Positions 28,558 to 60,347 of a stretch of DNA of 64,000 bases are shown here, piece after piece. How positions within the stretch are numbered: position 1 is the stretch's first letter; the number at the start of each line of letters is the position of its first letter. Origin of the DNA: an uncultured Clostridia bacterium (GTDB lineage: Bacteria > Acidobacteriota > Blastocatellia > UBA7656 > JADIYM01); the NCBI GenBank assembly GCA_964641945.1, contig CAZXLQ010000001.1, positions 13,725 through 77,724 of the forward strand. Reading direction: 5' to 3'. The position numbers and the translations under genes are program-made. Below the pieces are notes generated by a model. The model saw only the letters and a list, made by a program, of their open reading frames with translations. It made no database searches and was not told the origin of the DNA.

Positions 28558-28786
28558 CCATTGCTATCCGTCCTTCTCGGTCTCGACGCATGGACATCCT
28601 TCGATGGCGTTGCCTGTTAGGATCGACTCTTCGACGAAGATCACAGTCCAAGCACATCTCCGCCTTCCGAGGCTCACCACCGATGAAAGACCACTCGGGA
28701 GTGGTTTCGCCGCAGCAAACGCACACGGGGTTCCCCAGTCGCCTCAACGCCTGGAACCTCAACGAGGGCTTGGGACGCTTACGCAT
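28526..28786 (-). CDS. doubtful small Cys-containing ORF
   Basis: low complexity; convergent overlap with 28012-28557. Confidence 0.25.
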   Translation of the reverse strand: MRKRPKPSLRFQALRRLGNPVCVCCGETTPEWSFIGGEPRKAEMCLDCDLRRRVDPNRQRHRRMSMRRDREGRIAMARLGKCQLMR

Positions 28787-29549
28787 GAGCGGCAGAACCT
28801 GAAGCAACGCGCTTGAGGTACTCGTTCACCTGCTCGATCGTCAGCGGTGGGACGTGAACTTGGGTGTCAGTGTGCATGAAGCCCCAGCCAACGTCCGCGA
28901 CAACCAGGGTCCCGTCCGGACGACGCATGAGGTTGCCCGAGTGAACGTCTTCCCAGTCGATTCCCATCGAGTGCATCGCGTGGACCGCGTCGCTGATCTG
29001 ACGCAGCAGTTCGACACCGCGCTCCAGGTTGGGCGCCGTATTCATTCCGCTTTCCACGAGATCGTCCCTCAGGTAGCTCCGCCACTTGTCGAGCATTGCT
29101 CGATGCGATGGCCGCGGAAACTTCAGGTCGATGTCCATGTCGTTGTAGATGTCGAAGAGAATGTCGACCAGCGTCGAGTCTTTCTTCGAGAGCGGCGTCA
29201 TGTAGGACCGGTGAATCAGATACCAGCCGCGAAGACCTGGCTGATGCGAGCCCGTCACGACCCAGATGTTGTGGATGTCGACGATGTTCTTGTGCCTCTT
29301 GCCACGAAGCACGGCGGAGGCCTGAGCCTCGGACGGATCCCGAGTGAACTTCAGAACGGACTTGCCCCCGAGGTCCACTTCGTAGGCAGCGCCGAACGCT
29401 CCTTTGCCGAGCTTCTGCTTCACGGGGTCGGTGATTCCGAGTCGCTCGACGCAATCTCGATGCTTCAACATCACAAGCCCCAACGGCATGTGAGGCTCGC
29501 GGGTGATCTTCGAGAACGTGGAAGGGTAGCTGTAGGACTGGTCGATCAT
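28779..29549 (-). CDS. protein kinase-like (Ser/Thr kinase fold)
   Basis: Gly-rich loop LGKGAFGAAYEV, Lys in VLKF, catalytic HSGNLMRR, DVGWG. Confidence 0.7.
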   Translation of the reverse strand: MIDQSYSYPSTFSKITREPHMPLGLVMLKHRDCVERLGITDPVKQKLGKGAFGAAYEVDLGGKSVLKFTRDPSEAQASAVLRGKRHKNIVDIHNIWVVTGSHQPGLRGWYLIHRSYMTPLSKKDSTLVDILFDIYNDMDIDLKFPRPSHRAMLDKWRSYLRDDLVESGMNTAPNLERGVELLRQISDAVHAMHSMGIDWEDVHSGNLMRRPDGTLVVADVGWGFMHTDTQVHVPPLTIEQVNEYLKRVASGSAAHA

Positions 29550-30884: not shown

Positions 30885-31637
30885 ATGGCTCTCTACCACG
30901 GATCGAACGAAGACCTCGACGAGCTGGACGGCAACGAGCCCGGCTACACGGGCTCGCTCGGCTGGGGCCTCTACCTCACGACCGACCCGGAGTTCGCCAG
31001 GATCTTCGGCAAGCATATCTACGAGGTCGAGAGCCCGGTACCTGACGAGCTGGTGGCTCAGATCGAACCGATGTCCTACGACTGCGGCAACGACCTGACC
31101 TTCTACACGCCCGGTTCGACTCCGTTCTCCTTCGAGATCGTCGACCGCAAGACGGGAGAGACGCACCGCTATTCGGTGCTCGGAGACTGCGACGAGGAAG
31201 TTCGCCAGGACCTCCGCCGGTGGGCCCTCGATGAGTTCGTGCCGTCGCAGGAGCTGAAGGACGCCGTGAACAAGCTGCCAGCGGCGATCGCCTCCCGTGT
31301 CGGCGTCGGCGCCAAGGAGATCCTCGATGCGGCCAGCAAGGGGGAGCGTGTCGACGACGTCATCGACGCGATCCTCGACACGATGTCCGAAGAGGGTGTC
31401 GACGGGGACCTTCTCGACGATGAGATCAAGCCGCTACTCGAAGCGCTCGAACGGGAAATCGACGAGTTCGCCGACGAGAAGGTCGCCGAGCGCCTGGGTG
31501 ACGAACTCGATCTCGACGACATCTCGGCAATCGTCGAGCGCCACGGCTACAGCGCGTTCTTCATCGAAGGCTACGCGCCGGGCAACGAGTACGTCATCGT
31601 GGACGAGAAGTACCTACCGATCCCGGTGACCAAGTAG
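30885..31637 (+). CDS. candidate PARP-like (H-Y-E class) ADP-ribosyltransferase
   Basis: LYHGS, GWGLYLTTD and GNEYVIVDEKYL resemble PARP catalytic triad blocks (HGS / GIYFA / YNEYIVYD); acidic linker between; motif-level call only. Confidence 0.45.
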   Translation: MALYHGSNEDLDELDGNEPGYTGSLGWGLYLTTDPEFARIFGKHIYEVESPVPDELVAQIEPMSYDCGNDLTFYTPGSTPFSFEIVDRKTGETHRYSVLGDCDEEVRQDLRRWALDEFVPSQELKDAVNKLPAAIASRVGVGAKEILDAASKGERVDDVIDAILDTMSEEGVDGDLLDDEIKPLLEALEREIDEFADEKVAERLGDELDLDDISAIVERHGYSAFFIEGYAPGNEYVIVDEKYLPIPVTK

Positions 31638-31638
31638 G

Positions 31639-32337
31639 TCACAGGCCGAGAACGCGCGCCGCCCACTCCTCGTGGATGCAGACGATGTGCGCCTCGACGC
31701 ACGCCATGTTCTCCAACTTGGCGTAGACCGGACGCAACCCGTGACGTCGGTAGTGGGCACACCACTCCTCCAGCGTCTGCACCGTCACATGTGCCGGCTC
31801 CGGGTCTGGAAAGACGTGCGGCGTCACCGCTCCGACGATCCCGTGCGGTGCAAGAACACGCTTGATCGCCGACAGCGCTGCGTCGAGGTTGATGACGTGT
31901 TCCATGACATGGCGCGAGTAAATGAACTGCACCTGGCCGTCCCAGTCCGACGGCATCTCCTCGATCGCCAGATGACGCACGTTGAGGTGTGCCGTCCGCT
32001 CAGCAGCCTCCTTGACCACCTCGATGCCGCAGTAGTTCGCCTCAAAGCGCTGCATCAAGTAGTCGCGATCGCGTGCCGAGCCAGACCCGAGATCGAGCAC
32101 GCCGCGGTCTTCTCCCTCGATCTTCATCCCGGCGCGATGCTGACATCCGAGCATGGCGTCGACGATGAGCCGGCGGCTCTCTTCATCGCGTTCCAACCAC
32201 CACCGAACACGCTCATCCGGCTGCCCGACGTGCATCACCGCCATCCGCCGATGGTGGTCAGTGTTCAGCAACTCCAGGCGCGCTCGCTCGTTCGGATCCA
32301 TCTCACGCCTTCCGCAGCACGACCATGCGCTCGACAC
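31639..32337 (-). CDS. class I SAM-dependent methyltransferase
   Basis: VLDLGSGSARD motif I and downstream motifs. Confidence 0.75.
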   Translation of the reverse strand: MSSAWSCCGRREMDPNERARLELLNTDHHRRMAVMHVGQPDERVRWWLERDEESRRLIVDAMLGCQHRAGMKIEGEDRGVLDLGSGSARDRDYLMQRFEANYCGIEVVKEAAERTAHLNVRHLAIEEMPSDWDGQVQFIYSRHVMEHVINLDAALSAIKRVLAPHGIVGAVTPHVFPDPEPAHVTVQTLEEWCAHYRRHGLRPVYAKLENMACVEAHIVCIHEEWAARVLGL

Positions 32338-33073
32338 CGTCCATCATGACGGACTCGTCCGCAGGAACCTCGTGCCCATCGTACCCGATGTAGGAGCAGG
32401 AGAACCCCTCCACGACCAGCTCCTCCCAAAACCTACGCGGCGCGCTGTACCGTTGCGGAGACCACTCGATGACAGCTCGAAACCCGGGGTTGGTGCGGAT
32501 CTTCTTCATCCCTGCCCACACGAACGGCTCATGGCCCTCTGTGTCGATGACCGCGAAGGTCGCCTCCGGACAGACGTCATCGGCTCGGACGGCCTCCACG
32601 ATCTGCTTTCCTTCGGCGGAGATCGCGCTGTTCATGCTCATGCCGTCGTCACGCATGTTGAACTTGCGCTGACCGGGCGCGTCGCTTGCGACAGCTCGAA
32701 CCACAGTCGTGTACGGATGGAAGCCGTTCAGGTGCATCGAGTGCTCGATGTTTCTGGCGTGAGTCTCGTTCGGCTCGATCGCAACGATGCGACCCATGCT
32801 GCCGACCTGCCGCGCCATCATCACCGAGTAGTAGCCGCAGTTCGCTCCGATGTTGACAGCGGTCTCCCCCTTCTTGAGGTTGTTCAGAATCCAGACCGTC
32901 ACCCATGATTCCCAGAACCCGTCGAGCAGCAGGTGAGGGGCCAGACCGCGATCGGAGGTGTCCAAGATCATCCGCAGTTCGCCGAGCACGACGGCCAGGG
33001 CCGTCTGCTTGCCCAGGTACACCGACCTCGCTCCCGCTCGACTCGACGCCTCGACGTTCGCGACTGTCGCCAT
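32303..33073 (-). CDS. FkbM-family methyltransferase
   Basis: VNIGANCGYYSVMMA..RIVAIEPNETHARNIE..LNG. Confidence 0.7.
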   Translation of the reverse strand: MATVANVEASSRAGARSVYLGKQTALAVVLGELRMILDTSDRGLAPHLLLDGFWESWVTVWILNNLKKGETAVNIGANCGYYSVMMARQVGSMGRIVAIEPNETHARNIEHSMHLNGFHPYTTVVRAVASDAPGQRKFNMRDDGMSMNSAISAEGKQIVEAVRADDVCPEATFAVIDTEGHEPFVWAGMKKIRTNPGFRAVIEWSPQRYSAPRRFWEELVVEGFSCSYIGYDGHEVPADESVMMDGVERMVVLRKA

Positions 33074-33591
33074 CAGCTCTTCCTCGGCGGCAGGTCGCTG
33101 ATGTCCACGTCGGATGCGGGTGGCAGATCGTCTCTGCGTCCAGGGACGTGCTTGTCATCCTGATGAGCATCGAGAGTCGAGTTCGGCATGACGCCTCCCA
33201 TCATCGTCTGGATGCGCTCCCCGGCCTTGTCGAGGAAGACCTCCGCTGCCTCTCCGAACTCAGCGCGCCTGTTGTCGCGAGCACGCTGGGCGATCGGCCT
33301 GAACTCATCGCCGCCGAGGCTGTCGTATGGACGGAGCATCTCCAGGCCGCAGCCGCTGCACGGGCCCGTGTAAGAACGAACATCGCCTCCGAGAGCTTCG
33401 ATCTCGTCCTTCTCGAAGCGGAGCGTTTTGTCCCATCCGCACTGGATGCAGACGAACCGACACTCGTCCGGCAGAGCCTCACCGGCGATTCGGCGAGCCA
33501 AGCGAGCGGCGTCTTCCTTCGACTTCAGCGCCAAAGCGGCGCCGGAGCTGGGAACGTCAGGACGGAACCCGGGAACGTCATCCTCGGCCAT
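33073..33591 (-). CDS. zinc-ribbon hypothetical protein
   Basis: CIQCGW..CSGCG. Confidence 0.5.
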   Translation of the reverse strand: MAEDDVPGFRPDVPSSGAALALKSKEDAARLARRIAGEALPDECRFVCIQCGWDKTLRFEKDEIEALGGDVRSYTGPCSGCGLEMLRPYDSLGGDEFRPIAQRARDNRRAEFGEAAEVFLDKAGERIQTMMGGVMPNSTLDAHQDDKHVPGRRDDLPPASDVDISDLPPRKS

Positions 33592-33784
33592 TCTTCTTCT
33601 CCTTCTTGGGCTCGAACTTCTCGATCAGGTAGTTCAGCACGGCCGAGATGTTCGGCTTGTTCTTGGCGTTCATCCACCCGCGCTCGCGCGCCAGCCCGAC
33701 GAGCTTCTCGAAGTTGGACACCGTCGAGCGAAACGACAGCCGAACGCTGTGGGTTTCTTCCTTCTCATCGGGCTCGGTCGACAT
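33578..33784 (-). CDS. small hypothetical protein
   Basis: 68 aa. Confidence 0.4.
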   Translation of the reverse strand: MSTEPDEKEETHSVRLSFRSTVSNFEKLVGLARERGWMNAKNKPNISAVLNYLIEKFEPKKEKKNGRG

Positions 33785-34077
33785 CAGAGCACCTTGCTCA
33801 TCGCCCGGACCATGAAGAGGTCCTCACCGCGAAGGTAGATCAGCGATGCCGCCGGACCTGCCGGAGTCGGCATCGTTGTCCTGAACTCCCAGACGTCGTC
33901 CGAGCCCAGCTCACGGAAGCTCTGCGCTGTGAACGCCACCAGGGTGTTCGCCGGCACGGACATCGCCTTGCCGTCCGGACCTTCGACCGTCGAGATGTTG
34001 AAGTCGCTCACCCTCGTGAGGATCTCGATCGGACCCTGACCGTTCAGGTTGCGCAACGCGATGCCCATCGACGCCAT
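33784..34077 (-). CDS. hypothetical protein
   Basis: 97 aa. Confidence 0.45.
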   Translation of the reverse strand: MASMGIALRNLNGQGPIEILTRVSDFNISTVEGPDGKAMSVPANTLVAFTAQSFRELGSDDVWEFRTTMPTPAGPAASLIYLRGEDLFMVRAMSKVL

Positions 34078-34078
34078 T

Positions 34079-35176
34079 TCAGCCTCCTTCGACCCATGTT
34101 CGGAGTTTCTCGACCCACTGCGGGAGCGCCCATTCCCAGGTGCCCCAGTTGCCCTGCTTCTCGAAGTCCATCGAGTTGCGAACCTGCATCGCGTGAACGT
34201 TGAGCCTGTTCAGGCCGCGATCCAGACAAGCTCCCAACAGTCCGACATCGATCACTGGTGCCATCCCGTTCTCGTACGCGAGAGGGGCGTCGAATGGAGA
34301 AGGGATGCACATCCATCGCCCCGGCCAATCGACGAGGAACTCTGCGTGCCCAGTGTTGCATGTCGTCAGCAAGGGAACACCGGCTACCAGCGCCCCGCTG
34401 ATCATCATGCCGTACCCCTCACAGCGAGACGGGGAGATCACGAGATCCGCTTCTTCGTAGAGCCGCGACAGCGACTCGTCCGACTCTCCGCGAGCTTCAC
34501 CACACCGGAACACCACGTCGTCGCTCAGGTCGTGGTCGGCGATCTTGTAGAGGACACCCTTTTGAAGGGCGCTTGGGCCATGGATGACGAGCTTTGCGTG
34601 CGGTCGCACGTGAGCCCAAGCCTCGATCAGCTCCTCGGTGCCCTTTCGCCCAGGCCAGGCGAAGTCACTGGTAAAATGGACCGCCGTGAGGCAAGGGCTG
34701 CCCTGAACGCACTGGGCCCTGAGCCAGCGCTGCTTGCTGTCCGAAGGGACCGGACTCCCGAGAGGAAGCACGCTGGCCACGAAGTCGCTGTTCTCGATGT
34801 CATCAAGCGCTCGCAGACAGAACCTCGATGGAGCGATGACCGTCCCGAACTTCGCGATCGTCGTCAGGTACTCCTTGTCCATCTCAGTCGTGTTGGGGCT
34901 GATGAAGATGGCCGACCGGTCCCTTCCTCTCTGCTCGGGGAAAGAGCTGAGGTAGTGGTGCGGCACGGCGATCACGAGAACATGCGTGCCGTCGCGCGGG
35001 TCCTCGGCGACGCTCCTCCACCGGTCATGAAGTGCCGGGTCAAGGTTGATCACCCGCCCGAGCATGCCCTCATGCCTCAGCGCCTCCGCGACGCGCCCGG
35101 CGACAGACGCGTAGGAGTGCATGGTGCCGAAGTGTCCGACGATGTCGATCACGCGAGCTTCCACTCCTTCACCCAC
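34079..35176 (-). CDS. GT4-type (GT-B) glycosyltransferase
   Basis: C-terminal EGYGMMISGALVAGVPLL (E-x7-E region). Confidence 0.75.
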   Translation of the reverse strand: MGEGVEARVIDIVGHFGTMHSYASVAGRVAEALRHEGMLGRVINLDPALHDRWRSVAEDPRDGTHVLVIAVPHHYLSSFPEQRGRDRSAIFISPNTTEMDKEYLTTIAKFGTVIAPSRFCLRALDDIENSDFVASVLPLGSPVPSDSKQRWLRAQCVQGSPCLTAVHFTSDFAWPGRKGTEELIEAWAHVRPHAKLVIHGPSALQKGVLYKIADHDLSDDVVFRCGEARGESDESLSRLYEEADLVISPSRCEGYGMMISGALVAGVPLLTTCNTGHAEFLVDWPGRWMCIPSPFDAPLAYENGMAPVIDVGLLGACLDRGLNRLNVHAMQVRNSMDFEKQGNWGTWEWALPQWVEKLRTWVEGG

Positions 35177-36510
35177 TCTTCAGGGACGATGCGGCTCAGC
35201 CCCGCCCTCACCGCCGGCAGGCAGCTCTCTGCGCTGAACATCTCACGGGTGGCCGAGGCTGCGGCGCGGTCGAGATACCGGCCTCGGTCGAACTGGGTCT
35301 GCATCCCTGCTGCCAGGTCGTCCAGCTTGTAGGTGCCCCACCGCGTTCGCTTGTCGAACATGAGAGCGATGCGAGCGACTTCTGGGCCGACCTCGGTGAG
35401 CTGGTAGGGGAAGGTGGTGTCTCGGGTCGATCCGGACTTCTGACGAATCTCCTCGACCATCTGCCCGACGGCACCGTAGGCGCTCGTGACCATCGGCACC
35501 CCCTGAGCTTTCGCCCAGACATGCGGAATGCCAAGGCCCTCCCCGTAGGACGGGTTCGCGTAGCAGTCCAAGTCGCCGAGCCACTCGATGACCTGCTGGT
35601 CCGTCTGGTCGGTCCCCAGCTCGAAGCCGATGCGAGGCATCTTTCCGGACATCGGAAACCCAGAGTCACCGAACTCTTTCGCGATCTCCGCGATCTCCGC
35701 CGTGAGCTTCTCCTTGAACTTCTTGATGGTGAGGTTTTCACCGAATGCGCTCGTCTTGAGGACGAGCTTCACCGGCTGCTCGCGAGCAAACGCCGAGAAG
35801 TAGGCTCGCACAAGATCGTGCATGCCCTTCCGCTTCTGCCACGTACCAAGCACGCCGAAGATGAATGGATCGTCATGCGTGACCGGCCGATTCTTCCGCT
35901 CAGCCAACACGTCGAGTGCCGTCATCGACCATGGCCCCTCCGTCAGCATCGGCCTGACCACGTGGACCACGCTTGCCGGAACGTTGGACTGGACGAAAGC
36001 GTCACGAACGAACTCGCTCACGACCCAGATGCCAGCAAAGACCGGACCGGTCGCGAGGCTCCGGCAGTAATCCGAGACCCGATCGCCCTCGAACGCGCAG
36101 TACGGGACGATCTTCGGCGCCATCTCCTCCATCTCCACGGCCACCTCGGGCGGCCACGAGCAGAACAGCGCCTTCGGATGCCCAACGCCTTCCTTCACCC
36201 ACTGGAAGAGCAGGTCGTATCGGTCGGGCGGAAAACGCTCGATGTCGATGTCCACATTGCGATGCGGCACCAGCGCCGTCGGGATCCCAAGCGACCGCGA
36301 GAGCATCCACTGTAGCGACAGCGCGTGCGTCGCGTACCCCGTACGATGATGGCTTCCCCACGTGTGCCAGAGCCCATGCACGTCGTACCCGGGAGCCGGC
36401 GGCGCGACGTAGTCGCGGAACTTCTGCCCCGTCGGACGCATCTGCGACGCAACCAGCGCCTCGAACTCTTCTGGCGTCCGATCCTTGTATTCCTGGTACT
36501 TGTCCGACAT
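35149..36510 (-). CDS. glycosyltransferase-like protein (GT-B, family 1/4-like)
   Basis: YGEGLGIPHVWAKAQGVPMVTSAYG. Confidence 0.6.
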   Translation of the reverse strand: MSDKYQEYKDRTPEEFEALVASQMRPTGQKFRDYVAPPAPGYDVHGLWHTWGSHHRTGYATHALSLQWMLSRSLGIPTALVPHRNVDIDIERFPPDRYDLLFQWVKEGVGHPKALFCSWPPEVAVEMEEMAPKIVPYCAFEGDRVSDYCRSLATGPVFAGIWVVSEFVRDAFVQSNVPASVVHVVRPMLTEGPWSMTALDVLAERKNRPVTHDDPFIFGVLGTWQKRKGMHDLVRAYFSAFAREQPVKLVLKTSAFGENLTIKKFKEKLTAEIAEIAKEFGDSGFPMSGKMPRIGFELGTDQTDQQVIEWLGDLDCYANPSYGEGLGIPHVWAKAQGVPMVTSAYGAVGQMVEEIRQKSGSTRDTTFPYQLTEVGPEVARIALMFDKRTRWGTYKLDDLAAGMQTQFDRGRYLDRAAASATREMFSAESCLPAVRAGLSRIVPEEWVKEWKLA

Positions 36511-36521
36511 GAGGGTGTCAG

Positions 36522-36550
36522 ACAGTACATGGGCAGTCAGACAGGTGCAA
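36522..36550 (-). promoter_or_regulatory. promoter TTGCAC-N17-TACTGT with two TGTCWGACA sites, 11 nt before ATG 36510
   Basis: minus-sense TTGCACctgtctgactgcccatgTACTGTctgacaccctcATG. Confidence 0.5.
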
Positions 36551-36558
36551 GTCGAGAA

Positions 36559-36900
36559 CTACGACAGATCCTTGGAAGCGACGGGAAGCTCGTCGTGGTC
36601 CTCTCCATCGGGTTCTCGGAGTGGTCTGTTGCGAGGAACGCTTGCGAGCAGGTCGAGCTTCATCTGTTCGAGAAGACCGATGGCCTGGTAGATGACCGGA
36701 CTCGACGTCGAGAAGTTGTTCGTCTTGATGTAGTACGTGCCGTCTTCGCTCACGAGCAGTGCCATCGCCAACGTCGGAGCCCCCTCGAAGCCTTCAGCTC
36801 CGTCCTCGGCGATCTCAGCCAGGAACTGATCGAACCTCTTTCGGTCCTCAGCAACCTGACGAGCGATCTCCATGTCCAACTCGTTCTTCTTGTCGGTCAT
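36559..36900 (-). CDS. hypothetical protein
   Basis: 113 aa. Confidence 0.5.
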   Translation of the reverse strand: MTDKKNELDMEIARQVAEDRKRFDQFLAEIAEDGAEGFEGAPTLAMALLVSEDGTYYIKTNNFSTSSPVIYQAIGLLEQMKLDLLASVPRNRPLREPDGEDHDELPVASKDLS

Positions 36901-36904
36901 CGGT

Positions 36905-37255
36905 TCAGACCTGGCTGGAGTACGACTTCAGCGAACGCATGACGGTCTCGTTCGCACCGCCTCGGCGCTCCAACCGTTCGTAGAGGTTCTTGGCCAGCTC
37001 TGGCGTCGAGAGCTTTCTGGCTGCCTTGTTCCGCGACATTGGCTGCGGCGCCGGCTTCCGGTTGACCATCCAGACGACGACGAGAACGGCCAGAACCGCC
37101 AAGAGTAGGAGCAGCAGCTTCTTCTGACGGTCATCGGCGACGGAGACCGGAGAGAACTGCGACAGCGGAACGAGCGGGTAGTTGTGCGGCTGAACAGCAG
37201 GCCGCAGCCCGACGACGAACTGCGCTGGGTTGGGCGGCAGAATGCGGTAGGACAT
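36905..37255 (-). CDS. single-pass membrane protein
   Basis: KKLLLLLLAVLAVLVVVWMV. Confidence 0.5.
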   Translation of the reverse strand: MSYRILPPNPAQFVVGLRPAVQPHNYPLVPLSQFSPVSVADDRQKKLLLLLLAVLAVLVVVWMVNRKPAPQPMSRNKAARKLSTPELAKNLYERLERRGGANETVMRSLKSYSSQV

Positions 37256-37262
37256 TGGACCT

Positions 37263-37820
37263 CTACTTGGGGTCGATCAGCGTAGGACGCTGATGCACTA
37301 CGAGCTGCGTCACGCCGGACATGTCGGTGACAGCGATGCCGTCCTGCACTCGCACGCACCACTCTCGGCAGTAGTCGCAGACCCACTTCTCTGCGGAGGA
37401 GATGAGGGGGATCTTGTCATCGTCCATCACCGGACGACCGAGGACGTTCTTGCAGTGGAACTGCCAGTTGATCTTGATGTGCTTGGGCGCCTTCCTGTAC
37501 GGAACCGCCTCGACGCTCATCTGCTTGTTGTCCTCGCGGACGAGAAAGTTGTTGTGACAGCGAGGGCACATTCCCACGAGCATGCCGACGGCCTCTGCCC
37601 TCTCGCTGGCGCGAGGGGCCGCGTACAGCTCGCACTCGATGGTGCTGATCTCCTCGCCCTTCGGGCCGACCCACATGATCCACGTCTTCGGCGCCATCTC
37701 TTCCGCATCGAACGAACTGTATGCCAGCCGTCCCTGCTGCGACGTCTTTCGCCACATCTCCTGACCAGCACGCATCTGCGCCTCGGTCATGTGGAACGCG
37801 TCTCTCTTGCTCACGGTCAT
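37263..37820 (-). CDS. hypothetical protein
   Basis: 185 aa, several Cys. Confidence 0.55.
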   Translation of the reverse strand: MTVSKRDAFHMTEAQMRAGQEMWRKTSQQGRLAYSSFDAEEMAPKTWIMWVGPKGEEISTIECELYAAPRASERAEAVGMLVGMCPRCHNNFLVREDNKQMSVEAVPYRKAPKHIKINWQFHCKNVLGRPVMDDDKIPLISSAEKWVCDYCREWCVRVQDGIAVTDMSGVTQLVVHQRPTLIDPK

Positions 37821-37847: not shown

Positions 37848-38330
37848 TCAGCGGCGACGACGGTTCGCGCGAACCGGCTTGCCTTCGGTCAGGATCTTGA
37901 GACCCTGAAAGCTGTAGAACGCACTCAAGCCGCTGAGCACGTAGAGCACGGCCAGAGGCGGCAGGATGTACCGGACCATGTACGGCGCCGCAGCGACCGC
38001 CATGCGATCGACGAGCGGGTTGACGACGTGGCGGTCGAGAGCGGCAACGATCTGCGGCCCCTGCCGACGCATCGTCCCTTCCGGGTCGCTGATCAGCCTT
38101 GCGGTCGTATCCGCCACCGACGCGACGGTGCTCGCGGTCGTCTGCCCGAGGCCAGCGATCGTCACAGGCCGATGCCGAGCGACGCGCGCAAGGCACGCTC
38201 CTTCGTCAGCCATCCCACGACACGCCTGAGCCCTGGCGTTCCAGTAGGCGTTGAGCTTCGACCTCGTCCAGCCGAGGTCGCGGTTCGCCTGAGCCCTGGT
38301 GAGAGCCACCTGCCCGAGCGAGTAGCTCAC
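37848..38330 (-). CDS. hypothetical membrane-associated protein (GTG start)
   Basis: GGAGG RBS, GTGA overlap; C-terminal TM. Confidence 0.5.
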   Translation of the reverse strand: MSYSLGQVALTRAQANRDLGWTRSKLNAYWNARAQACRGMADEGACLARVARHRPVTIAGLGQTTASTVASVADTTARLISDPEGTMRRQGPQIVAALDRHVVNPLVDRMAVAAAPYMVRYILPPLAVLYVLSGLSAFYSFQGLKILTEGKPVRANRRRR

Positions 38331-38860
38331 GATCGCCTCCGACGGCGGTTCGCCCGAAGGGCGGAGCGACGCCCCATCCGATAGCCCAGGAAGGCCATGA
38401 GCGGGATCCCGATGAACGTACCGACCGCGGTGATCTTCGCGTAGTCGGTGAGGGCCGAGTAGTTGGTCGGAGGAACTCCGTCGAAACGCAATGTGGCCGT
38501 GTTCGGCCCGTACTCGACCCGGGGTGTCGGACCCATCCACAGTCGACGAGCCACTGCGAAGAACTTCGAGACGACGTTCTCCCCCTGCTCGGGCACGACC
38601 TCGGTCACCTGGCCCAGGCCACGGAGCGGGACGGTGTGGTACCGACCGTACGGATAGGTCGGACCGACCTTGAAGAGGTCGCCGTAGCCGCCGAGGTAGA
38701 GCACCTGCTCGCCCCAAACGCCTCGACCGACCTTGTAGCCTGCGCCGGGGATGGGCGTCTGGACGACGCGCGGATACTGCCGGAACCTGGCGAGACTGCC
38801 TGGCAAGTAGAGCGACGGGCGGTACGGTTGGACCTCAACCGGCTGCGGATTTACCGACAT
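38327..38860 (-). CDS. hypothetical protein
   Basis: 177 aa; C-terminal TM. Confidence 0.5.
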   Translation of the reverse strand: MSVNPQPVEVQPYRPSLYLPGSLARFRQYPRVVQTPIPGAGYKVGRGVWGEQVLYLGGYGDLFKVGPTYPYGRYHTVPLRGLGQVTEVVPEQGENVVSKFFAVARRLWMGPTPRVEYGPNTATLRFDGVPPTNYSALTDYAKITAVGTFIGIPLMAFLGYRMGRRSALRANRRRRRS

Positions 38861-40037: not shown

Positions 40038-40406
40038 CTAGGCGCCCAAGCGCTTGAGTGCCATCAGCGGCCTGACGGATCTCCGCAGCTTGTGAAGCGC
40101 ATTGATTGCCTTCGCGAGCTTCTGAGCTTCGTACGCGTTCCAGGTCTCACGACGACCCTTCTCATTCGCCCGCGAGCGAAACTCTGACAACCCAACGAGG
40201 AGCTTGTCGACGACAGGAAGCATCTCCGCGAACTCGTTCTTCGGTCGGTCCCACATGCTTTTGAACAAGTCGACCGTCCTCAACAACCCTTGCGCTGAAA
40301 CGCCGGACTGCTGCTGAGCGCGTACCAGAGCGATGCGAAGGTCGGAGCCGATCAGCCAACCCATCTCCCGGCAGATTGCCTTCTCTTCGTCCGACACGGT
40401 CATCAA
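40038..40406 (-). CDS. hypothetical protein
   Basis: 122 aa. Confidence 0.5.
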   Translation of the reverse strand: MMTVSDEEKAICREMGWLIGSDLRIALVRAQQQSGVSAQGLLRTVDLFKSMWDRPKNEFAEMLPVVDKLLVGLSEFRSRANEKGRRETWNAYEAQKLAKAINALHKLRRSVRPLMALKRLGA

Positions 40407-41089
40407 AGCCCTCGACGGCCGAAAGAACGCAGAACCGAAGCGATGCTCTCCAGCTTGGAGACGATTCGCAGCTCAGGCGCCAGCCTGTACATCAACTCAG
40501 GCTCAGTCGGCTCGGGCATGTAAACAACGAGTGGCCTGCCTCTCCCAGCGAACCACCCAGCTTCCAGATGAGCGCTCTTGCCGCAGTCGAGCACCAGGAC
40601 CACCGCATCAGCAGACCGCATGCCTTCGTAATCGGCATCAAACGCACGCTGGGCCGATGGATGCGTGAGCGCTTTCCCCAAGACCTCTGCGCTCCATGGC
40701 TTCGGCCCAGCAACGTCTACCCAGCGAAACCCAGACTCGTCGCTGCGAAAGTCGTAGACATCGAACCCATCAGCACGCAGCGCGCTGACCACCGCGGGCT
40801 GGTGGATGTTCTTCCACGAAGACGCAACGTATATGCTCTGCGGTGCGCGGCGCGTCTGATCGCTCAAGAGCGAGGCCAACCGTTGCGCACACGCTGAGCA
40901 CCCCGGAACGTTCATCTCGTAGAACGCAACGACCGCGTGAGCAGCCGACCCAAAGACCCTCTCACCCTTCTCCGGGACCCGACCGCACCACGTCAACGAC
41001 TGCAAAAAGCAGTGGTCCTCCAGCCCGCGCGTGATGGAGTCTGGTCCGCAGTCAGGCGGCAATCCTCGCAAGATGCAGAGAGGCCTCAC
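40403..41089 (-). CDS. hypothetical protein, possibly nucleoside 2-deoxyribosyltransferase-like (flavodoxin-like fold)
   Basis: IYVASSW..ADAVVLVLD..EAGWFAGRGRPLVV pattern; weak. Confidence 0.45.
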   Translation of the reverse strand: MRPLCILRGLPPDCGPDSITRGLEDHCFLQSLTWCGRVPEKGERVFGSAAHAVVAFYEMNVPGCSACAQRLASLLSDQTRRAPQSIYVASSWKNIHQPAVVSALRADGFDVYDFRSDESGFRWVDVAGPKPWSAEVLGKALTHPSAQRAFDADYEGMRSADAVVLVLDCGKSAHLEAGWFAGRGRPLVVYMPEPTEPELMYRLAPELRIVSKLESIASVLRSFGRRGL

Positions 41090-43416: not shown

Positions 43417-43441
43417 GGTTCTTTCGACGGAGTCAACCAAG

Positions 43442-43512
43442 TTCGGGGAGAGGGACTCGAACCCCCGTGAACTGGACCAAGGCCAGTCGTCCTGCCGCTA
43501 GACGATCCCCGA
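43442..43512 (-). tRNA. tRNA (anticodon loop CCTTGGT; TTG, Gln-type, C33)
   Basis: acceptor 7/7, T-loop TTCGAGT. Confidence 0.6.
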
Positions 43513-43513
43513 G

Positions 43514-43584
43514 CGCAGCGTGCGGGAGTCGAACCCGCCTGGCGTCGGTGAAAGCGACGCGGCCTCCCGGAAGCCCAACGCTGC
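43514..43584 (-). tRNA. tRNA-Glu(TTC)
   Basis: acceptor 7/7 (43515-21 vs 43578-84), T-loop TTCGACT, loop CTTTCAC. Confidence 0.75.
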
Positions 43585-43597
43585 ATCATCCAGATAG

Positions 43598-43670
43598 AGC
43601 CCCGAGCCGGTCTCGAACCGGCGGCCCCCTGCTTACAAGGCAGGTGCTCTGCCAACTGAGCTATCGGGGC
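43598..43670 (-). tRNA. tRNA-Thr(TGT)
   Basis: acceptor 7/7, loop CTTGTAA. Confidence 0.75.
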
Positions 43671-43851
43671 GGTTTCGTTCTTCACGCCATCGGTCAAGAA
43701 TCGCAGCCGTCTCACGCGTCGCAACGAAAAGCCGCACGGAGAGGCACGACTCGCACTGCCTGTCGCCAGAGTACGACGGCAGGACCCCTTCGTGCCCAGT
43801 GCGACCACACTTCTCGCAGATCGAGTAGAACTCGTGCCAGTAGTCGATCAT
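43633..43851 (-). CDS. doubtful small Zn-binding ORF whose 3' end overlaps tRNA-Thr
   Basis: CEKCGRTGH..CESC; overlap with tRNA 43598-43670. Confidence 0.25.
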   Translation of the reverse strand: MIDYWHEFYSICEKCGRTGHEGVLPSYSGDRQCESCLSVRLFVATRETAAILDRWREERNRPDSSVGRAPAL

Positions 43852-43867
43852 TCGACGAACTGTATCA

Positions 43868-43940
43868 TGCCGGTTGCGGGAGTCGAACCCGCCTGCTCCG
43901 CTTTACGAGTGCGGTGCTCTCCCACGAGAGCGTAACCGGC
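43868..43940 (-). tRNA. tRNA-Thr(CGT)
   Basis: acceptor 7/7, loop CTCGTAA. Confidence 0.7.
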
Positions 43941-43977
43941 GTATACTGCATGCGATGAGGCCCACCGCGACAGAACG

Positions 43978-44166
43978 ATGCGAATGATCTCAACGGCGAG
44001 AACGAGTCTGCTCGACGCTCAGTACGCGCTCGGAGCGATCTCCCGCTACTCACCCGAGGCCGCCGCGCTCCACAAGATCATCGTCGAGACCCGGAAGACC
44101 GTCGAGCGAATGCGTGTCGTCGACGCGCAAACCATCTCGCCCAACAAGAGGCGGAAGCGGCGCTGA
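43978..44166 (+). CDS. doubtful small ORF between tRNAs
   Basis: 62 aa. Confidence 0.3.
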   Translation: MRMISTARTSLLDAQYALGAISRYSPEAAALHKIIVETRKTVERMRVVDAQTISPNKRRKRR

Positions 44167-44239
44167 CGTCCCGTACGCGAATCGAACGCGTGTTTCCAGG
44201 TTGAGGGCCTGGCGACTTGAGCCGCTGGTCGAACGGGAC
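44166..44239 (-). tRNA. tRNA (anticodon loop CCCTCAA; CTC, Glu-type, C33)
   Basis: acceptor 7/7, T-loop TTCGATT. Confidence 0.55.
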
Positions 44240-44560
44240 ATCACGGAGACCGGAAGGCTCGAACTCCAACGCCTTGCGACGTCGCACCGGGTAGCGGCCG
44301 GGCCCAGCACCACCTGCTGGTTCAGTCTCCAAGCGGAAGAAGGAGGTCACGATCCCCAACGCCTTGCGACGCCGCTCCGCTTTCGAGGCGGACCCGGTCC
44401 CCGACCGGTTCTTCTTCCAAGCGGAGAGCGGAGGTCCTGACCCTCAGCGCCTTGCGACGCCGCAACCGCTTCCAACGGTACCCGAGCCCCGCTCGGTTCG
44501 CTCTCCATGGAGAAGTGGGGGCACGATCCCCAGCGCCGAAACGCCCATCGGTGTTCAAAG
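44240..44560. repeat. three or four degenerate ~90-nt tandem units with palindromic core CTTGCGACG(Y)CGC and tRNA-fragment-like GGTCACGATCCCC
   Basis: cores at about 44266, 44356, 44444; partial copy at about 44520. Confidence 0.6.
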
Positions 44561-44942
44561 CCGTGTCGAGCCCAGCTCGATTCCTTCTCCAGTCGGTGAT
44601 CCGTTCGAGTCCGGCGTCTACACACCTGAGTTACCAGCCCAGGACGCCTCAGCAGAAGTCGATTGTTCGGTCACGATCCTCCGCCGCCTGGCCGGGCGAC
44701 TTCAACGGACCGGAGGGACTCTACCCCCAAGGCGCAAAGCACTGGTTCATGATTTTCGCGCCAACCGCATTGACCAAGGGCCAGGAACCTCGCCGACCGG
44801 CGCCCAAGGTCTCACGTACCGTATCTTCCTCTGCTGTACGACACACCCGATTCCCCGAAGCGCTGCCTTGCCCGCCGTGCCAGCGTGCGTCTTCAGCCAT
44901 GGGTAGAAACCGGACTCGAACGGATCACTTACATTCTCACCT

Positions 44943-45455
44943 TCACGCAGCCTTGCCGAAGTAGGGCCGCCATGCCTCAGGGACAGCCCTGAGATCGAAC
45001 TTCTTGGGAACCACCGGAAGCCAGACAGGCTTCTTCGGCTGCCTGAGCAGCTTCATCTTCGCCTCCTCCGGCGTCCGGTTGCCCTTCTTCGAGTTGCACG
45101 GATAGCAAGCCGCGACGATGTTGTCCCATTCCGTACGACCACCTCGCGAGCGAGGGATGACGTGGTCGTAGTTCAGCTCGTGCGCCTCGAAGTCACCGCC
45201 GCAGTATTGACACTGGTGCCCGTCGCGGAGCAGCACGTTCGCGCGAGAGAACTTGATCGACACCTTCTTTCCGCGAGCCTTCCGCACCATACGGATGATC
45301 GACGGCATGTGCATCGCGACCGACGGGGAGCGGATCACCTCCGACGTCGCCTCCACGACCTCTGCCTTTTCGTCGTAGAGCAGGCAGATCGCCCGCTCCC
45401 AGGAGACGATCCGACTTGGTTGGTAGAACGAATCGAGGACGAGTACGCGCTGCAT
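44943..45455 (-). CDS. HNH endonuclease
   Basis: DGHQCQYCGG..YDHVIPRSRGG..WDNIVAACYPCNSKKGN. Confidence 0.75.
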   Translation of the reverse strand: MQRVLVLDSFYQPSRIVSWERAICLLYDEKAEVVEATSEVIRSPSVAMHMPSIIRMVRKARGKKVSIKFSRANVLLRDGHQCQYCGGDFEAHELNYDHVIPRSRGGRTEWDNIVAACYPCNSKKGNRTPEEAKMKLLRQPKKPVWLPVVPKKFDLRAVPEAWRPYFGKAA

Positions 45456-45472
45456 GATCTGGCTCCGTGATC

Positions 45473-45545
45473 TGCGGACCGTCGGAGTCGAACCGACACT
45501 GAGCGGTGTTTGAAGCCGCTGCCTCTGCCGTTGGGCTACGTCCGC
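45473..45545 (-). tRNA. tRNA (anticodon loop TTCAAAC; CAA on a short-variable-arm scaffold, identity unclear)
   Basis: T-loop TTCGACT, acceptor 6/7. Confidence 0.5.
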
Positions 45546-45559
45546 GTTGAGGTTGGTCG

Positions 45560-45587
45560 ATAGTAAGGTTCGTGTCTGACAAGTCAA
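45560..45587 (-). promoter_or_regulatory. promoter TTGACT-N16-TACTAT with TGTCAGACA in spacer, upstream of tRNA 45473-45545
   Basis: minus-sense cttcTTGACTtgtcagacacgaacctTACTATcgacc. Confidence 0.5.
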
Positions 45588-45594
45588 GAAGCGA

Positions 45595-45668
45595 TGCGCG
45601 AGGACGGATTTGAACCGACACTTGCTAGGTTCTTAGCCTAGTGCCTCTGCCAGTTGGGCTACCCGCGC
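45595..45668 (-). tRNA. tRNA (anticodon loop CTAAGAA; identity unclear)
   Basis: T-loop TTCAAAT, acceptor pairs with one G-U. Confidence 0.5.
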
Positions 45669-45670
45669 GT

Positions 45671-45744
45671 TGCCGACGAGTGGATTTGAACCACCACTGG
45701 GTACGGTCTGAACGTACTGCCTCTGCCAGTTGGGCTACATCGGC
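45671..45744 (-). tRNA. tRNA (anticodon loop TTCAGAC; CAG on a short-variable-arm scaffold)
   Basis: T-loop TTCAAAT, acceptor pairs with one G-U. Confidence 0.5.
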
Positions 45745-45750
45745 GTGGAG

Positions 45751-45824
45751 ATGCACGACCAGAGATCGAACTCTGCTGGGGCGACGTGTGAGATCGCTGC
45801 CGTCTCCAGACGGCTCGTCGTGCA
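45751..45824 (-). tRNA. tRNA-Val(CAC)
   Basis: acceptor 7/7; imperfect T-stem; loop CTCACAC. Confidence 0.6.
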
Positions 45825-45924
45825 GGTTCAGATCGTCATCCGTGTCGCGCACACCTCGGCCGTGGCCACGGCCGCCGGACTCCTAGCCGGGACTGATGAC
45901 GATCCGGTTCGGTCCGCGGACCGA

Positions 45925-45996
45925 TCGGGCTGGCCGGACTCGAACCGGCAACTACTCCGCCCCGAACGGAGTGGGGTACCTTTCCCCTACAGCCCG
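45925..45996 (-). tRNA. tRNA-Pro(CGG)
   Basis: acceptor 7/7, T-loop TTCGAGT, loop TTCGGGG. Confidence 0.75.
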
Positions 45997-46077
45997 GAAG
46001 TCTGGGTGGCCGGTTCCGCCCCGGCGGCCTCGTGCTCCCCGAGCACGCGCTCTGCTTGCTGAGCTACACCCAGATGA

Positions 46078-46148
46078 TCGCAGCGGCGAGAATCGAACTC
46101 GCTCTGCCCGCGTATGAAACGGGTCCTCGGCCATCGAGGATCGCTGCG
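46078..46148 (-). tRNA. tRNA-Met(CAT) (Met/fMet/Ile2 not distinguished)
   Basis: acceptor 7/7, loop TTCATAC. Confidence 0.7.
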
Positions 46149-46231
46149 TTGGTTTGCGGCCCCCGGAGTCGCGCCGGGTTGGCAAGGGGTATGAGCCCAA
46201 GCTGGTATCTCCACCTGCGCCGCACAAGACA

Positions 46232-46303
46232 CGCTGTCGGGTTGACTCGAACAACCATCTCCGACTTCGGACGTCGGGATCCTATCCTTTGGACTACGAC
46301 AGC
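46232..46303 (-). tRNA. tRNA-Arg(CCG)
   Basis: acceptor 7/7, loop GTCCGAA. Confidence 0.75.
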
Positions 46304-46779
46304 TTTTTCCACGAAAGCGGGACAAGTAGCCCGTGGTCCATCTCCCAGTGGCAGTTGCGACACAGGATCGCCACGTTGTCCTCCGCGTTGACCTCTGAGA
46401 GCGAAGCGCTCTCGCTGAACCCCGAGATTGGCTTGATATGGCAGAACTCGACATGCTTCGAGTACCCACAGTTCTCACACACTCTTGCACGGTGAGCGTT
46501 TGATTCGCGGCAGTGAGTCCGTACCAGCGAGTGTCGCCACGGCCCATCCTTGGAACGCTGAAGTTCTCCCAACGTGCGCTCACGCGACTTGTCCACAGAG
46601 ATGCACGCGATGCACTTCTGCCTCCTGGACCGCTCTACCTGCACTCCGCAAGCGCTACATGCCGGACGCGGGTTTCGCTTTCTCTTGACGGTCTCCCTGT
46701 TTGTCATGCGCGCGGAGCAGGTGCGAGAGCAAAACCTTGGGTTCTCCGTCTCCTGGCCGCACGTGGCACACTTGACCAT
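46294..46779 (-). CDS. HNH endonuclease
   Basis: C-terminal CHIKPISGF..NVAILCRNCHWEMDHG; N-terminal Cys clusters; start at MVKCATCG. Confidence 0.75.
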   Translation of the reverse strand: MVKCATCGQETENPRFCSRTCSARMTNRETVKRKRNPRPACSACGVQVERSRRQKCIACISVDKSRERTLGELQRSKDGPWRHSLVRTHCRESNAHRARVCENCGYSKHVEFCHIKPISGFSESASLSEVNAEDNVAILCRNCHWEMDHGLLVPLSWKKLS

Positions 46780-46789
46780 GACGCGTGGC

Positions 46790-46817
46790 AATCTAGCCAC
46801 CCACTGTCTGACAGTCA
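46790..46817 (-). promoter_or_regulatory. promoter TTGACT-N16-TAGATT with TGTCAGACAG in spacer, 10 nt before HNH ATG 46779
   Basis: minus-sense gcgTTGACTgtcagacagtggtggcTAGATTgccacgcgtcATG. Confidence 0.55.
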
Positions 46818-46892
46818 ACGCCCACGGAGGGACTTGAACCCCCACGAGACCCAGGTTCGTAGCCTGGCGCTCTATCCATTGAGCTACGCGGG
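46818..46892 (-). tRNA. tRNA-Arg(ACG)
   Basis: loop CTACGAA, acceptor pairs with one G-U. Confidence 0.7.
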
Positions 46893-46899
46893 CAGAAGA

Positions 46900-46974
46900 C
46901 CGCGACCGGAGGGAGTCGAACCCACATCGATCCATTACGGTTCACTCGTTTAGAAAACGAGACCGGTACGGTCG
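46900..46974 (-). tRNA. tRNA (anticodon undetermined)
   Basis: canonical T-arm, acceptor 7/7 (46901-07 vs 46968-74); internal arms ambiguous. Confidence 0.5.
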
Positions 46975-47481
46975 CCCAGATGTAGCCAGGCCATGGGCCT
47001 TCGCCCACTTTCTGACAGCGTTATCCGACACGCCGAACATCTCACCGAGCGCGACCCACGAGTGCGTCTCCAACAACTTCTCAAGCTCCTCCTTCTCTGG
47101 TCGCTTCGCGATTCGCGAAGCCATAGCGGAGCATTCGTACGAGCAAAAACGCGCGTTGAACGTCTGGCGTCCGCATCGCTCGCACGTGGACGATTCGCGA
47201 GGCCCGTAGCGCTCCATATTGTGCGCGGCCACATGCTGCCTGTGATCCATGACCTCCAAGTTCTCTGGACGGTTGTCGTCCTTCAGCTCGTTCTTGTGAT
47301 GGACGCTTTCGGATGGCAGTACCCAGCGGCCGATCGTGATCGATGCGACGTGACGATGGACGTAAACCTTCCCCTGACTGTTTGCGAGCGGGTGAGATTT
47401 ATCCAGAAAGTACATGTACCCGAGCGTCTTGTCCTTCTTCGGCGGCTTTGCGCAAGGATCCCAACTGTACTCTTGGTCCAT
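46942..47481 (-). CDS. HNH endonuclease (HNH_3-like) with C-terminal HTH
   Basis: HHKNELKDDNRPENLEVMDHRQH; 3' end overlaps tRNA 46900-46974. Confidence 0.75.
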   Translation of the reverse strand: MDQEYSWDPCAKPPKKDKTLGYMYFLDKSHPLANSQGKVYVHRHVASITIGRWVLPSESVHHKNELKDDNRPENLEVMDHRQHVAAHNMERYGPRESSTCERCGRQTFNARFCSYECSAMASRIAKRPEKEELEKLLETHSWVALGEMFGVSDNAVRKWAKAHGLATSGRPYRSRFLNE

Positions 47482-47515
47482 GTTTTTGGCCTAGAATGTT
47501 GAGGTTCGAATGTCA

Positions 47516-47583
47516 AGGACCGACCGCGAATCGAACGCGGCTTCGACGGGTTGCAATCGTCGGTCTTCCCAGAAGACCGGTCC
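47516..47583 (-). tRNA. tRNA-Cys(GCA), tentative, compact D-arm
   Basis: T-loop TTCGATT, loop TTGCAAC, acceptor 6/7. Confidence 0.45.
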
Positions 47584-47588
47584 AGAAA

Positions 47589-47659
47589 AGCGGGCGGCGA
47601 GAATCGAACTCGCTTGGCTGGGTTGGAAGCCCAGAGCCTAACCAGTCGGCCACGCCCGC
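47589..47659 (-). tRNA. tRNA-Gly(TCC)
   Basis: acceptor 7/7, loop CTTCCAA. Confidence 0.75.
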
Positions 47660-47895: not shown

Positions 47896-47898
47896 AGA

Positions 47899-47970: not shown

Positions 47971-47974
47971 AGAA

Positions 47975-60346: not shown

Positions 60347-60347
60347 G

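Follow-up and report, generated by a model that had tools for sequence, protein, structure and literature searches.

What does a large bacteriophage (phage) build when it encodes two glycosyltransferases (GTs) alongside two methyltransferases, and on what acceptor? The question is raised by an operon of seven minus-strand genes, running from position 36510 to 31639, in a 64,000-nucleotide (nt) stretch of contig CAZXLQ010000001.1 (positions 13,725 to 77,724; assembly GCA_964641945.1, an uncultured Clostridia bacterium), which we call the window and always mean at its full length. With a G+C content of ~62% and no structural genes, the window has the appearance of the non-structural portion of a large tailed phage. 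A first-pass annotation made from the sequence alone had described the operon as a methylation and glycosylation cassette, similar to those with which actinophages glycosylate virion proteins, and had named DNA and host cell-wall polymers as alternative targets. On the evidence below, the region is very probably a phage-borne operon for building and tailoring a glycan. Our favored explanation as a whole, in which that glycan is placed on a protein of the phage, is tentative and falls short of being probable.

All four enzymes scored above the curated cut-offs of hidden Markov models (HMMs) from Pfam, NCBIfam or PHROGs, and both GTs were also recognized by structure, so that the enzyme families first proposed can be retained. 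The GTs are labeled here GT-A and GT-B after their genes, and both proteins have the GT-B fold. Pfam scores for GT-A were marginal (Glycos_transf_1, PF00534, 29.2 bits with a cut-off of 26.4; Glyco_trans_1_4, PF13692, 28.3 with a cut-off of 27). Its AlphaFold model, built on 51 homologues, shows two Rossmann-like halves in a clear GT-B fold, with a predicted local distance difference test score (pLDDT) of 91.9, and returned 555 Foldseek matches in PDB at E ≤ 1e-3, the best being a chlorovirus NY-2A GT (3oy2, 8.8e-14). GT-B scored 49.8 bits with PF13692 (cut-off 27), 47.9 with PF00534 (26.4) and 35.2 with GT4-conflict (PF20706; 26). Its model (pLDDT 94.9) has an equally clear two-Rossmann GT-B fold and 350 matches at the same threshold, led by 3oy2 (1.8e-13) and then WaaG, SdgB/GtfA, BshA and ManT; the PDB matches of the two enzymes include HepE, WaaG, BshA, TarM, PglA and PimB'. 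Invariant residues are R227-K228-G229 and E324-G325 in GT-A and R168-K169-G170 and E244-G245 in GT-B. The FkbM-family protein exceeded the cut-offs of PF05050 (28.9 bits; cut-off 22.7) and TIGR01444 fkbM_fam (61.4; 37.7) and matched phrog_8156 (1.4e-27), and the class I S-adenosylmethionine (SAM) methyltransferase exceeded those of Methyltransf_23 (46.9; 27), Methyltransf_11 (42.2; 21.2) and Methyltransf_25. GT4 domains have been described as effectors in bacterial immune systems (PMC8195603); we do not take the PF20706 match as a sign of a defense function, because it spans 50 residues of the common nucleotide-binding region and overlaps PF00534.

The genes are ordered GT-A, GT-B, a 97-amino-acid (aa) protein, a 68-aa protein, a 172-aa zinc-ribbon protein (Zn172), FkbM and the class I methyltransferase (Table 1), and they form one polycistronic, translationally coupled unit. 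Read from the sequence, every gene after GT-A has a GGAGG-like Shine-Dalgarno sequence and is joined to its predecessor by a stop/start overlap (GTGA or TGATG) or a 1-nt gap. These junctions and Shine-Dalgarno sequences, together with a promoter layout kept in 20 of 23 relatives, bear out the earlier description of a single, operator-controlled minus-strand operon. The ORFs (open reading frames) and their strand also agree with that description, but two starts are likely to differ: GT-B at a GTG that overlaps the upstream stop as GTGA and has AAGGAG ahead of it, and the class I methyltransferase at an ATG 1 nt after the FkbM stop with GGAAGG ahead, the latter being also the start called for this gene in a contig of 96% identity. 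GT-A has no Shine-Dalgarno sequence, and its ATG lies ~11 nt past a -10-like box. At its other end the operon comes within 1 nt of the stop of a convergent gene. The promoter/terminator scan called no terminator, terminator-like sites being no more frequent than in shuffles, and a 6-bp hairpin at the convergent stop codons (31626-31642) is too weak to count as one. The N-terminal part of the convergent gene product (30885-31637, plus strand) weakly matches ART-PolyVal and DUF3990 (ADP-ribosyltransferase-like), and its C-terminal half is very acidic; the gene stays close to the cassette in several relatives.

Upstream of GT-A lie a -35-like and a -10-like hexamer, and the 11-nt spacing of the latter to the ATG implies that the GT-A mRNA would be leaderless or nearly so. 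A consensus scan called no promoter here; its consensus is that of E. coli, to which the two hexamers match at 3 + 3 of 12 positions. Relatives carry TTG(A/C)NN at an equal distance upstream of GT-A (TTGACA in loci L001 and L035, TTGCTC in L036 and TTGCGG in L049) and retain the -10 as TA(C/G)NGT. Three TGTCNGACA sites, O1 to O3, are present at this promoter. Two TGTCWGACA sites had been reported before, of which one (O2) is exact and the other (O1) carries a mismatch, and the third (O3) had been missed. The O1 position holds TGTCNGACA in L001, L034, L035, L036, L040, L049, L060 and others, O2 is retained in L002, L033, L035, L036 and L049, and most relatives have ATGTCAGACA at the start codon, residues M1 and D3 of GT-A being at least 90% conserved in a 51-sequence alignment. 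One operator is thereby written into the first three codons, which places regulatory and coding constraint on the same bases. The layout of TTGNNN, palindrome, TA(C/G)NGT, second palindrome and ATGTCAGACA at the start was found in 20 of the 23 relatives with a readable upstream region and persists down to 36% protein identity. Because this arrangement recurs in relatives and Met1 and Asp3 are conserved, we regard the promoter and its operators as real and under selection.

The same palindrome is found well beyond the operon. TGTCWGACA has 11 exact copies in the window, with 0.57 expected and none of 100 shuffles reaching 11, most of them at gene 5' ends on the minus strand and frequently placed right after a TTGACT -35 and before a TAGATT or TACTAT -10; the succession of -35 and palindrome also occurs at the window promoters at 42012, 45573 and 46805. 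It resembles an operator used genome-wide by the minus-strand arm, and candidates for its binding protein are an XRE-type helix-turn-helix protein (18189-18635) and the 68-aa protein of the operon.

Table 1 Features of the operon, its promoter and other annotated elements, in window coordinates.
Feature	Position	Strand	Basis or remark
GT-A, 453-aa GT4-like glycosyltransferase of GT-B fold, first gene	35149-36510	minus	Pfam, phrog_2170, AlphaFold, Foldseek
GT-B, 357-aa GT4 glycosyltransferase	34079-35152	minus	Pfam, AlphaFold, Foldseek; GTGA overlap with GT-A
97-aa conserved core partner	33784-34077	minus	GAAGGAGG ahead of ATG
68-aa conserved protein, beta-alpha-alpha (ribbon-helix-helix-like) pattern	33578-33784	minus	Alignment
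Zn172, 172-aa zinc-ribbon protein, last gene of conserved core	33073-33591	minus	C-x4-C-x2-C ... C-x2-C in sequence
FkbM-family SAM-dependent (O-)methyltransferase, 256 aa, accessory	32303-33073	minus	TGATG overlap with upstream gene
Class I SAM methyltransferase, ~220 aa, accessory, last gene	31639-32301	minus	HMM; motif I glycine loop, VLDLGSGSA
-35-like hexamer TTGCAC	36545-36550	minus	Read from sequence
-10-like hexamer TACTGT (TANNNT type)	36522-36527	minus	17-nt spacer; 11 nt ahead of ATG
Putative operator O1, TGTCTGACT	36535-36543		1 mismatch to TGTCWGACA; in spacer, directly 3' of -35
Putative operator O2, exact TGTCTGACA	36516-36524		Over 3' half of -10 and expected transcription start
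Putative operator O3, TGTCGGACA	36501-36509		Over GT-A start codon (ATG TCG GAC A, Met-Ser-Asp)
Exact TGTCWGACA copies	23387, 29553, 36516, 39359, 42012, 43408, 45573, 46805, 57861, 61225, 61812		
27 tRNA genes	43441-50041	minus	

We identified ~45 relatives of the locus, all of them metagenomic, on contigs of up to 180 kb and without a match to any cultured phage; one is a 161.5-kb IMG/VR viral contig, and forty more loci came from a metagenome scan. Homologues form 109 clusters for GT-A and 62 for GT-B, again all metagenomic. When a single genome was scanned for each of 185,579 bacterial and archaeal species, the GT-A profile found no true relative, only four distant GT4 fragments (25-29% identity), and neither GT matched any of 50,697 phage records by tblastn. 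Synteny was tabulated by tblastn over 43 loci. Wherever a contig continues far enough to show it, GT-B comes directly after GT-A (40 of 40 loci), and all 30 loci that run further on contain Zn172. Of the 43 loci, 29 gave a match to the 97-aa protein (27 of the 30 that reach Zn172, with no tblastn match in the divergent loci L056, L060 and L067), and the less divergent ones gave a match to the 68-aa protein. GT-A, GT-B and the 97-aa, 68-aa and zinc-ribbon proteins are a fixed five-gene core. The cassette of four enzymes is a co-directional operon, as had been claimed, but not a fixed set, since the GT4 pair and three small proteins are conserved and the methyltransferases are interchangeable. 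The operon is also unlike a lysogenic-conversion moron, because it is absent from the 185,579 species genomes and is core to a lineage of ~140-180-kb contigs.

The three small proteins occur only in this lineage and have no match in Pfam, PHROGs, NCBIfam or PDB sequences. The 97-aa protein has the pattern G-x-G-P...DFN...FRE...D-x-WEF...G-x-D-I. Seventeen aligned homologues of the 68-aa protein share the motifs S-x-RLSFR ... EKL..lAkakGW ... PNvSaVLNfLIe; a search of its profile among PDB sequences gave no ribbon-helix-helix match and HMMs gave no support, and we infer from the motif pattern that it might bind DNA.

Both methyltransferases are accessory and exchangeable. FkbM has the same position in eight relatives (L002, L034-L037, L049, L055 and L068), and the class I enzyme was detected in just the two closest relatives (L002 and the P0003 contig). 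To describe the contents of this slot, we clustered the ORFs lying within 5 kb past the zinc-ribbon gene and scanned representatives. A single BLASTP cluster, with 17 ORFs from 15 loci, mixes members with only Methyltransf_24 and members with only GT2; they are joined through a 407-aa protein of L001, whose N-terminal part is Methyltransf_24 and whose C-terminal part groups with GT2-only proteins such as that of L054, and which looks like a methyltransferase-GT2 fusion. The slot also holds tandem GT2 proteins (~500 aa), GNAT-GT2 and GNAT-methyltransferase fusions, DegT/DnrJ/EryC1 aminotransferases, small Methyltransf_11 proteins and a protein of 608 aa whose Methyltransf_13/23/14 domains are arranged as in nucleoside diphosphate (NDP)-sugar C-methyltransferases. 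Such a pairing of a constant GT core with exchangeable sugar-tailoring enzymes is characteristic of hypervariable glycan loci. The far end of the slot is usually marked by a homologue of a Ser/Thr-kinase-like gene (12 relatives), which in the window (28779-29549, minus strand, 256 aa) shows a weak resemblance in the catalytic-loop region and is preceded by a separate leaderless promoter bearing two copies of the operator (29553 and 29571). In L080, the five-gene core is separated from the variable glycan genes by a Cpn10 (GroES-like) gene (13520-13816).

What the methyltransferases act on is suggested by these neighbors. Three unrelated methyltransferase families share the slot beside the GTs, and a GT4-FkbM fusion protein was found in an uncultured phage, which together argue for methylation of the glycan. 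FkbM may, to judge by its genomic context, methylate a sugar or another hydroxyl of the pathway product.

In the explanation we favor, transcription would start at the leaderless-type promoter TTGCAC-17-TACTGT, which the three TGTCNGACA copies would occlude at the spacer, at the -10 and transcription start and at the start codon. Since the same palindrome occurs at many promoters of the arm, one DNA-binding protein would switch the operon jointly with the others. GT-A and GT-B, as two different retaining-type GT4 enzymes, would add sugars sequentially from host nucleotide-sugars to a cytoplasmic acceptor, with the 97-aa, 68-aa and 172-aa proteins as possible specificity or regulatory partners. 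The FkbM-type and class I enzymes would then O-methylate the sugars as a capping or tailoring step, and each phage, differing in its slot contents, would make its own glycan variant on the common core. The acceptor is possibly but by no means assuredly a phage protein, probably a component of the virion, that would be made during lytic growth. Precedent for phage GTs that O-glycosylate virions comes from Freeman et al. 2023, as related in PMC12619734. SdgB and GtfA, which O-glycosylate proteins, are among the top structural matches of GT-B.

A system close in kind is that of the mycobacteriophage Che8, whose gp108-gp110 (Freeman et al. 2023, Cell Host Microbe 31:1216) are likewise a phage operon of several GTs outside the structural module, and in both cases the phage supplies glycan machinery of its own; the glycans of mycobacteriophages attach to the C-termini of capsid and tail-tube subunits, according to PMC12619734. 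The products of the Che8 genes, annotated only as glycosyltransferases, measure 391, 232 and 211 aa, whereas the operon here has two GT4 enzymes of 357 and 453 aa with three obligatory small partners, and the phage records without a tblastn match to either GT include these mycobacteriophages. The likeness to actinophage virion-glycosylation cassettes proposed in the first-pass annotation stands only as an analogy, and the operon is not shown to be homologous to the mycobacteriophage genes. Structurally, the best match of both GTs is B736L of chlorovirus NY-2A (PDB 3oy2; E ~1e-13, TM score 0.60-0.72), but at 12-14% sequence identity, from a eukaryotic virus and with a function listed only as 'putative'. 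In chloroviruses (on the PBCV-1 capsid) and mimiviruses, clusters of GTs, methyltransferases, DegT-type aminotransferases and N-acetyltransferases put methylated or amino sugars on virion proteins.

Several observations weigh against a virion acceptor or against details of this explanation. Our analysis identified no acceptor: a scan of the window and flanking loci for Ser/Thr-rich stretches returned only spurious out-of-frame ORFs, and a walk along the 161.5-kb relative from 50.8 to 131 kb met no capsid or tail-tube gene in those 80 kb. The walk passed tail-fiber-like and beta-helix ORFs, an M23 peptidase, replication genes, ThyX, TnpB, MoxR/VWA and ParB-like genes; a muramidase search and a look-up of the right-end gene of the window did not reach structural genes either. 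Che8 gp108, the one member of gp108-gp110 compared, has no BLASTP similarity to GT-A or GT-B (E 0.29-0.95). The second Glu of the EX7E motif is replaced in both enzymes (by W332 in GT-A and by a small residue in GT-B), the first Glu and RKG being invariant. GT4 fold matches are generic, with similar scores for WaaG, BshA, TarM, glycogen synthases and sucrose-phosphate synthases, and the structural matches of the models do not discriminate between acceptors. Homologues of FkbM (~30% identity) lie among replication genes in Streptomyces BE-cluster phages with no GT nearby, so this clade need not act on sugars. Lastly, the timing of expression is read from putative operators.

Among the other acceptors, DNA is unlikely. 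On this account the substrate of the GT4 pair would be phage DNA after replication, at a base bearing a hydroxyl or hydroxymethyl group, on the model of T4, RB69/DLP3 and the clusters associated with 5mYOX, and the variable island would diversify the DNA glycan against modification-dependent nucleases; an arms race with restriction systems would account for the hypervariability. DNA-hypermodification clusters (T4 alpha- and beta-GT; the C5-methyltransferase, 5mYOX and GT of Pyle et al.; arabinosyl-5hoC in RB69/DLP3) resemble the operon in their GT4-related GTs of the GT-B fold, in the use of several GTs in series and in their glycan diversity among related phages. BshA-, MshA- and PglH-like (GT4) phage enzymes of this fold glycosylate 5-hydroxymethylcytosine with mono- to trisaccharides, including N-acetylhexosamine and heptose (bioRxiv 10.1101/2023.12.21.572611), and phages can carry their own nucleotide-sugar synthesis for DNA glycans (PMC13326640). 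In the window, a ParB-like gene and, 4 kb upstream of the operon, a gene resembling nucleoside deoxyribosyltransferases also fit this account. The relative that diverges most encodes a DpdA-family protein, of the 7-deazaguanine DNA transglycosylase family, directly upstream of the GT pair (L008 8240-9406; L009 2364-3530), the only hint that ties the pair to DNA modification.

However, such clusters are defined by a base-hydroxylating enzyme, either a ThyA homologue or a C5-methyltransferase with a dioxygenase, and methyl-, amino- and acetyl-sugar tailoring genes dominate here instead. Among ~70 window ORFs, Pfam and PHROGs detected no ThyA-like hydroxymethylase or hydroxylase, TET/JBP dioxygenase, C5-cytosine methyltransferase or DpdA, and a Dam-type N6-adenine enzyme was the sole DNA methyltransferase. 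Among the Pfam annotations listed for the flanks of relatives (±10 kb) there is likewise no such enzyme, the one DpdA excepted; this negative covers the 64-kb window and those flanks, with ~100 kb of the genome unseen. The 161.5-kb relative has an ordinary ThyX motif (L030 ~2300-3174, by eye and without an HMM), and T4 beta-GT was not among the top 50 structural matches of GT-A or GT-B. We know of no report of O- or C-methylated sugars or of 4-amino sugars on DNA. A new route of DNA hypermodification, in which the GT4 pair and its three lineage-specific partners dispense with the known hydroxylating enzymes and place methylated, aminated or acetylated sugars on a base, is quite improbable; if true, the hypervariable island would create phage-specific 'DNA serotypes'. 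The alternative, a self-contained virion-glycosylation system common among uncultivated ~160-kb phages, with O-antigen-like diversity on their particles, would be nearly as novel.

Remodeling of the host envelope is improbable as well. Here the enzymes would decorate a lipid-linked or wall polymer (teichoic acid, lipoglycan or an O-antigen-like chain), in the manner of TarM/TarP or seroconverting phages, and so block superinfection or aid release. The structural neighbors WaaG, TarM, PimB', PglA and the mycobacterial methylmannose-polysaccharide mannosyltransferase fit this role, as do the JGI automatic family name ('glycosyltransferase involved in cell wall biosynthesis'), the integrase of the phage, the tail-anchored membrane proteins encoded just upstream in a conserved block, and receptor-level arms races, which also produce glycan hypervariability. 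FkbM-type RfbT methylates the Vibrio cholerae O-antigen, and there is a weak Pfam match here to PF05575. Across the lineage, the enzyme repertoire (GT4, GT2, DegT aminotransferase, GNAT, and FkbM or other O-methyltransferases) is that of bacterial GT4 loci, such as Campylobacter pgl (PglA/H/J with PglE/PglD), O-antigen loci with RfbT and methylmannose ManT; these loci are hypervariable too, and PglA, WaaG and ManT are among the structural matches. Yet the locus has neither an initiating phosphoglycosyl transferase nor a flippase, a polymerase or an oligosaccharyltransferase, and the operon lacks the membrane components of Gtr-type seroconversion cassettes, with no GtrA/GtrB-type or other integral-membrane transferase. 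The family is confined to phage-like contigs and linked to three lineage-specific small proteins. The operon lies 21 kb from the integrase in a core syntenic block of the lineage rather than as a moron, the 185,579 species genomes hold no resident prophage or host counterpart, and its promoter shares an operator with many other promoters of the arm; were this the operator of a prophage repressor, the operon would be silent in lysogens.

That the adjacent genes serve separate pathways is distinctly unlikely. The GT4 pair would then act, for instance, on a small molecule or metabolite and the methyltransferases on nucleic acid, protein or cofactor, or else the pair would inactivate an antiphage small molecule of the host. 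In favor of this, most relatives lack the methyltransferases of the window, FkbM homologues of Streptomyces and Rhodococcus phages stand alone among replication genes, the GT4 enzymes BshA, MshA and SenB glycosylate small molecules, and no specific family could be assigned to the class I methyltransferase. Against it, translation couples all seven genes tightly, the slot is repeatedly occupied by sugar or nucleotide-sugar enzymes (GT2, DegT, GNAT-GT2 fusions and the NDP-sugar-type C-methyltransferase), and methyltransferase and GT are joined in the GT4-FkbM fusion and, apparently, in the 407-aa protein of L001. What acceptor probability remains is spread over small molecules or unlinked functions.

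The surroundings of the operon are those of a phage without a close cultured relative. Megablast of window positions 31000-37500 and 1-25000 against the 50,697 phage records gave no DNA-level match, and the UvrD helicase of the window is only ~28% identical to helicases of Bacillus and Listeria phages. Coding-frame G+C statistics divide the window into a plus-strand arm (116-31637), with two helicases, the Dam-type DNA methyltransferase, a ParB-like protein and a metallophosphoesterase, and a minus-strand arm (31639 to ~57844), which meet exactly at the 3' end of the operon. The window also encodes a tyrosine integrase, a muramidase, HNH endonucleases and an IS605-type transposase. Three HNH endonuclease genes (44943-45587, 46294-46935 and 46942-47481) are interspersed in the tRNA array, and IS605/TnpB-type transposase genes are dispersed through the lineage (window 50434-51669, minus strand; L006 4746-5987; L030 4082-5956). 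Near both ends of the window, in inverted orientation, lies a paralogous pair with a PcfJ-like domain and C-terminal pentapeptide repeats (116-1780, plus strand; 58952-60415, minus strand). The nucleoside 2-deoxyribosyltransferase-like protein upstream of the operon (40403-41089, minus strand) matches phrog_12607 at 4.6e-41 and is below the Pfam cut-off. Several proteins close with a hydrophobic helix and then a basic (A/P)NRRRR tail, which is also present on an M23 peptidase of the 161.5-kb relative (38327-38860 and ~37848-38330, both minus strand; L018 6568-7473) and may be a common membrane-anchoring or sorting signal. The 1040-aa helicase of that relative (L030 10852-13974) has, by eye from its translation, an apparent intein with a homing-endonuclease-like insert.

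A few mycobacteriophages are so far the only phages with demonstrated glycosylation, by enzymes of their own, of a target other than DNA, and the authors of that work saw little of it elsewhere. The operon described here belongs to a whole lineage of uncultivated large phages (~110 protein clusters at 90% identity) with a fixed two-enzyme core and three partner proteins, in which a slot swaps sugar-tailoring enzymes much as bacterial O-antigen loci do. As a compact unit of seven genes with clean boundaries, it is amenable to direct expression and testing. Whatever the acceptor, the locus indicates strong diversifying selection on a glycan made by the phage.

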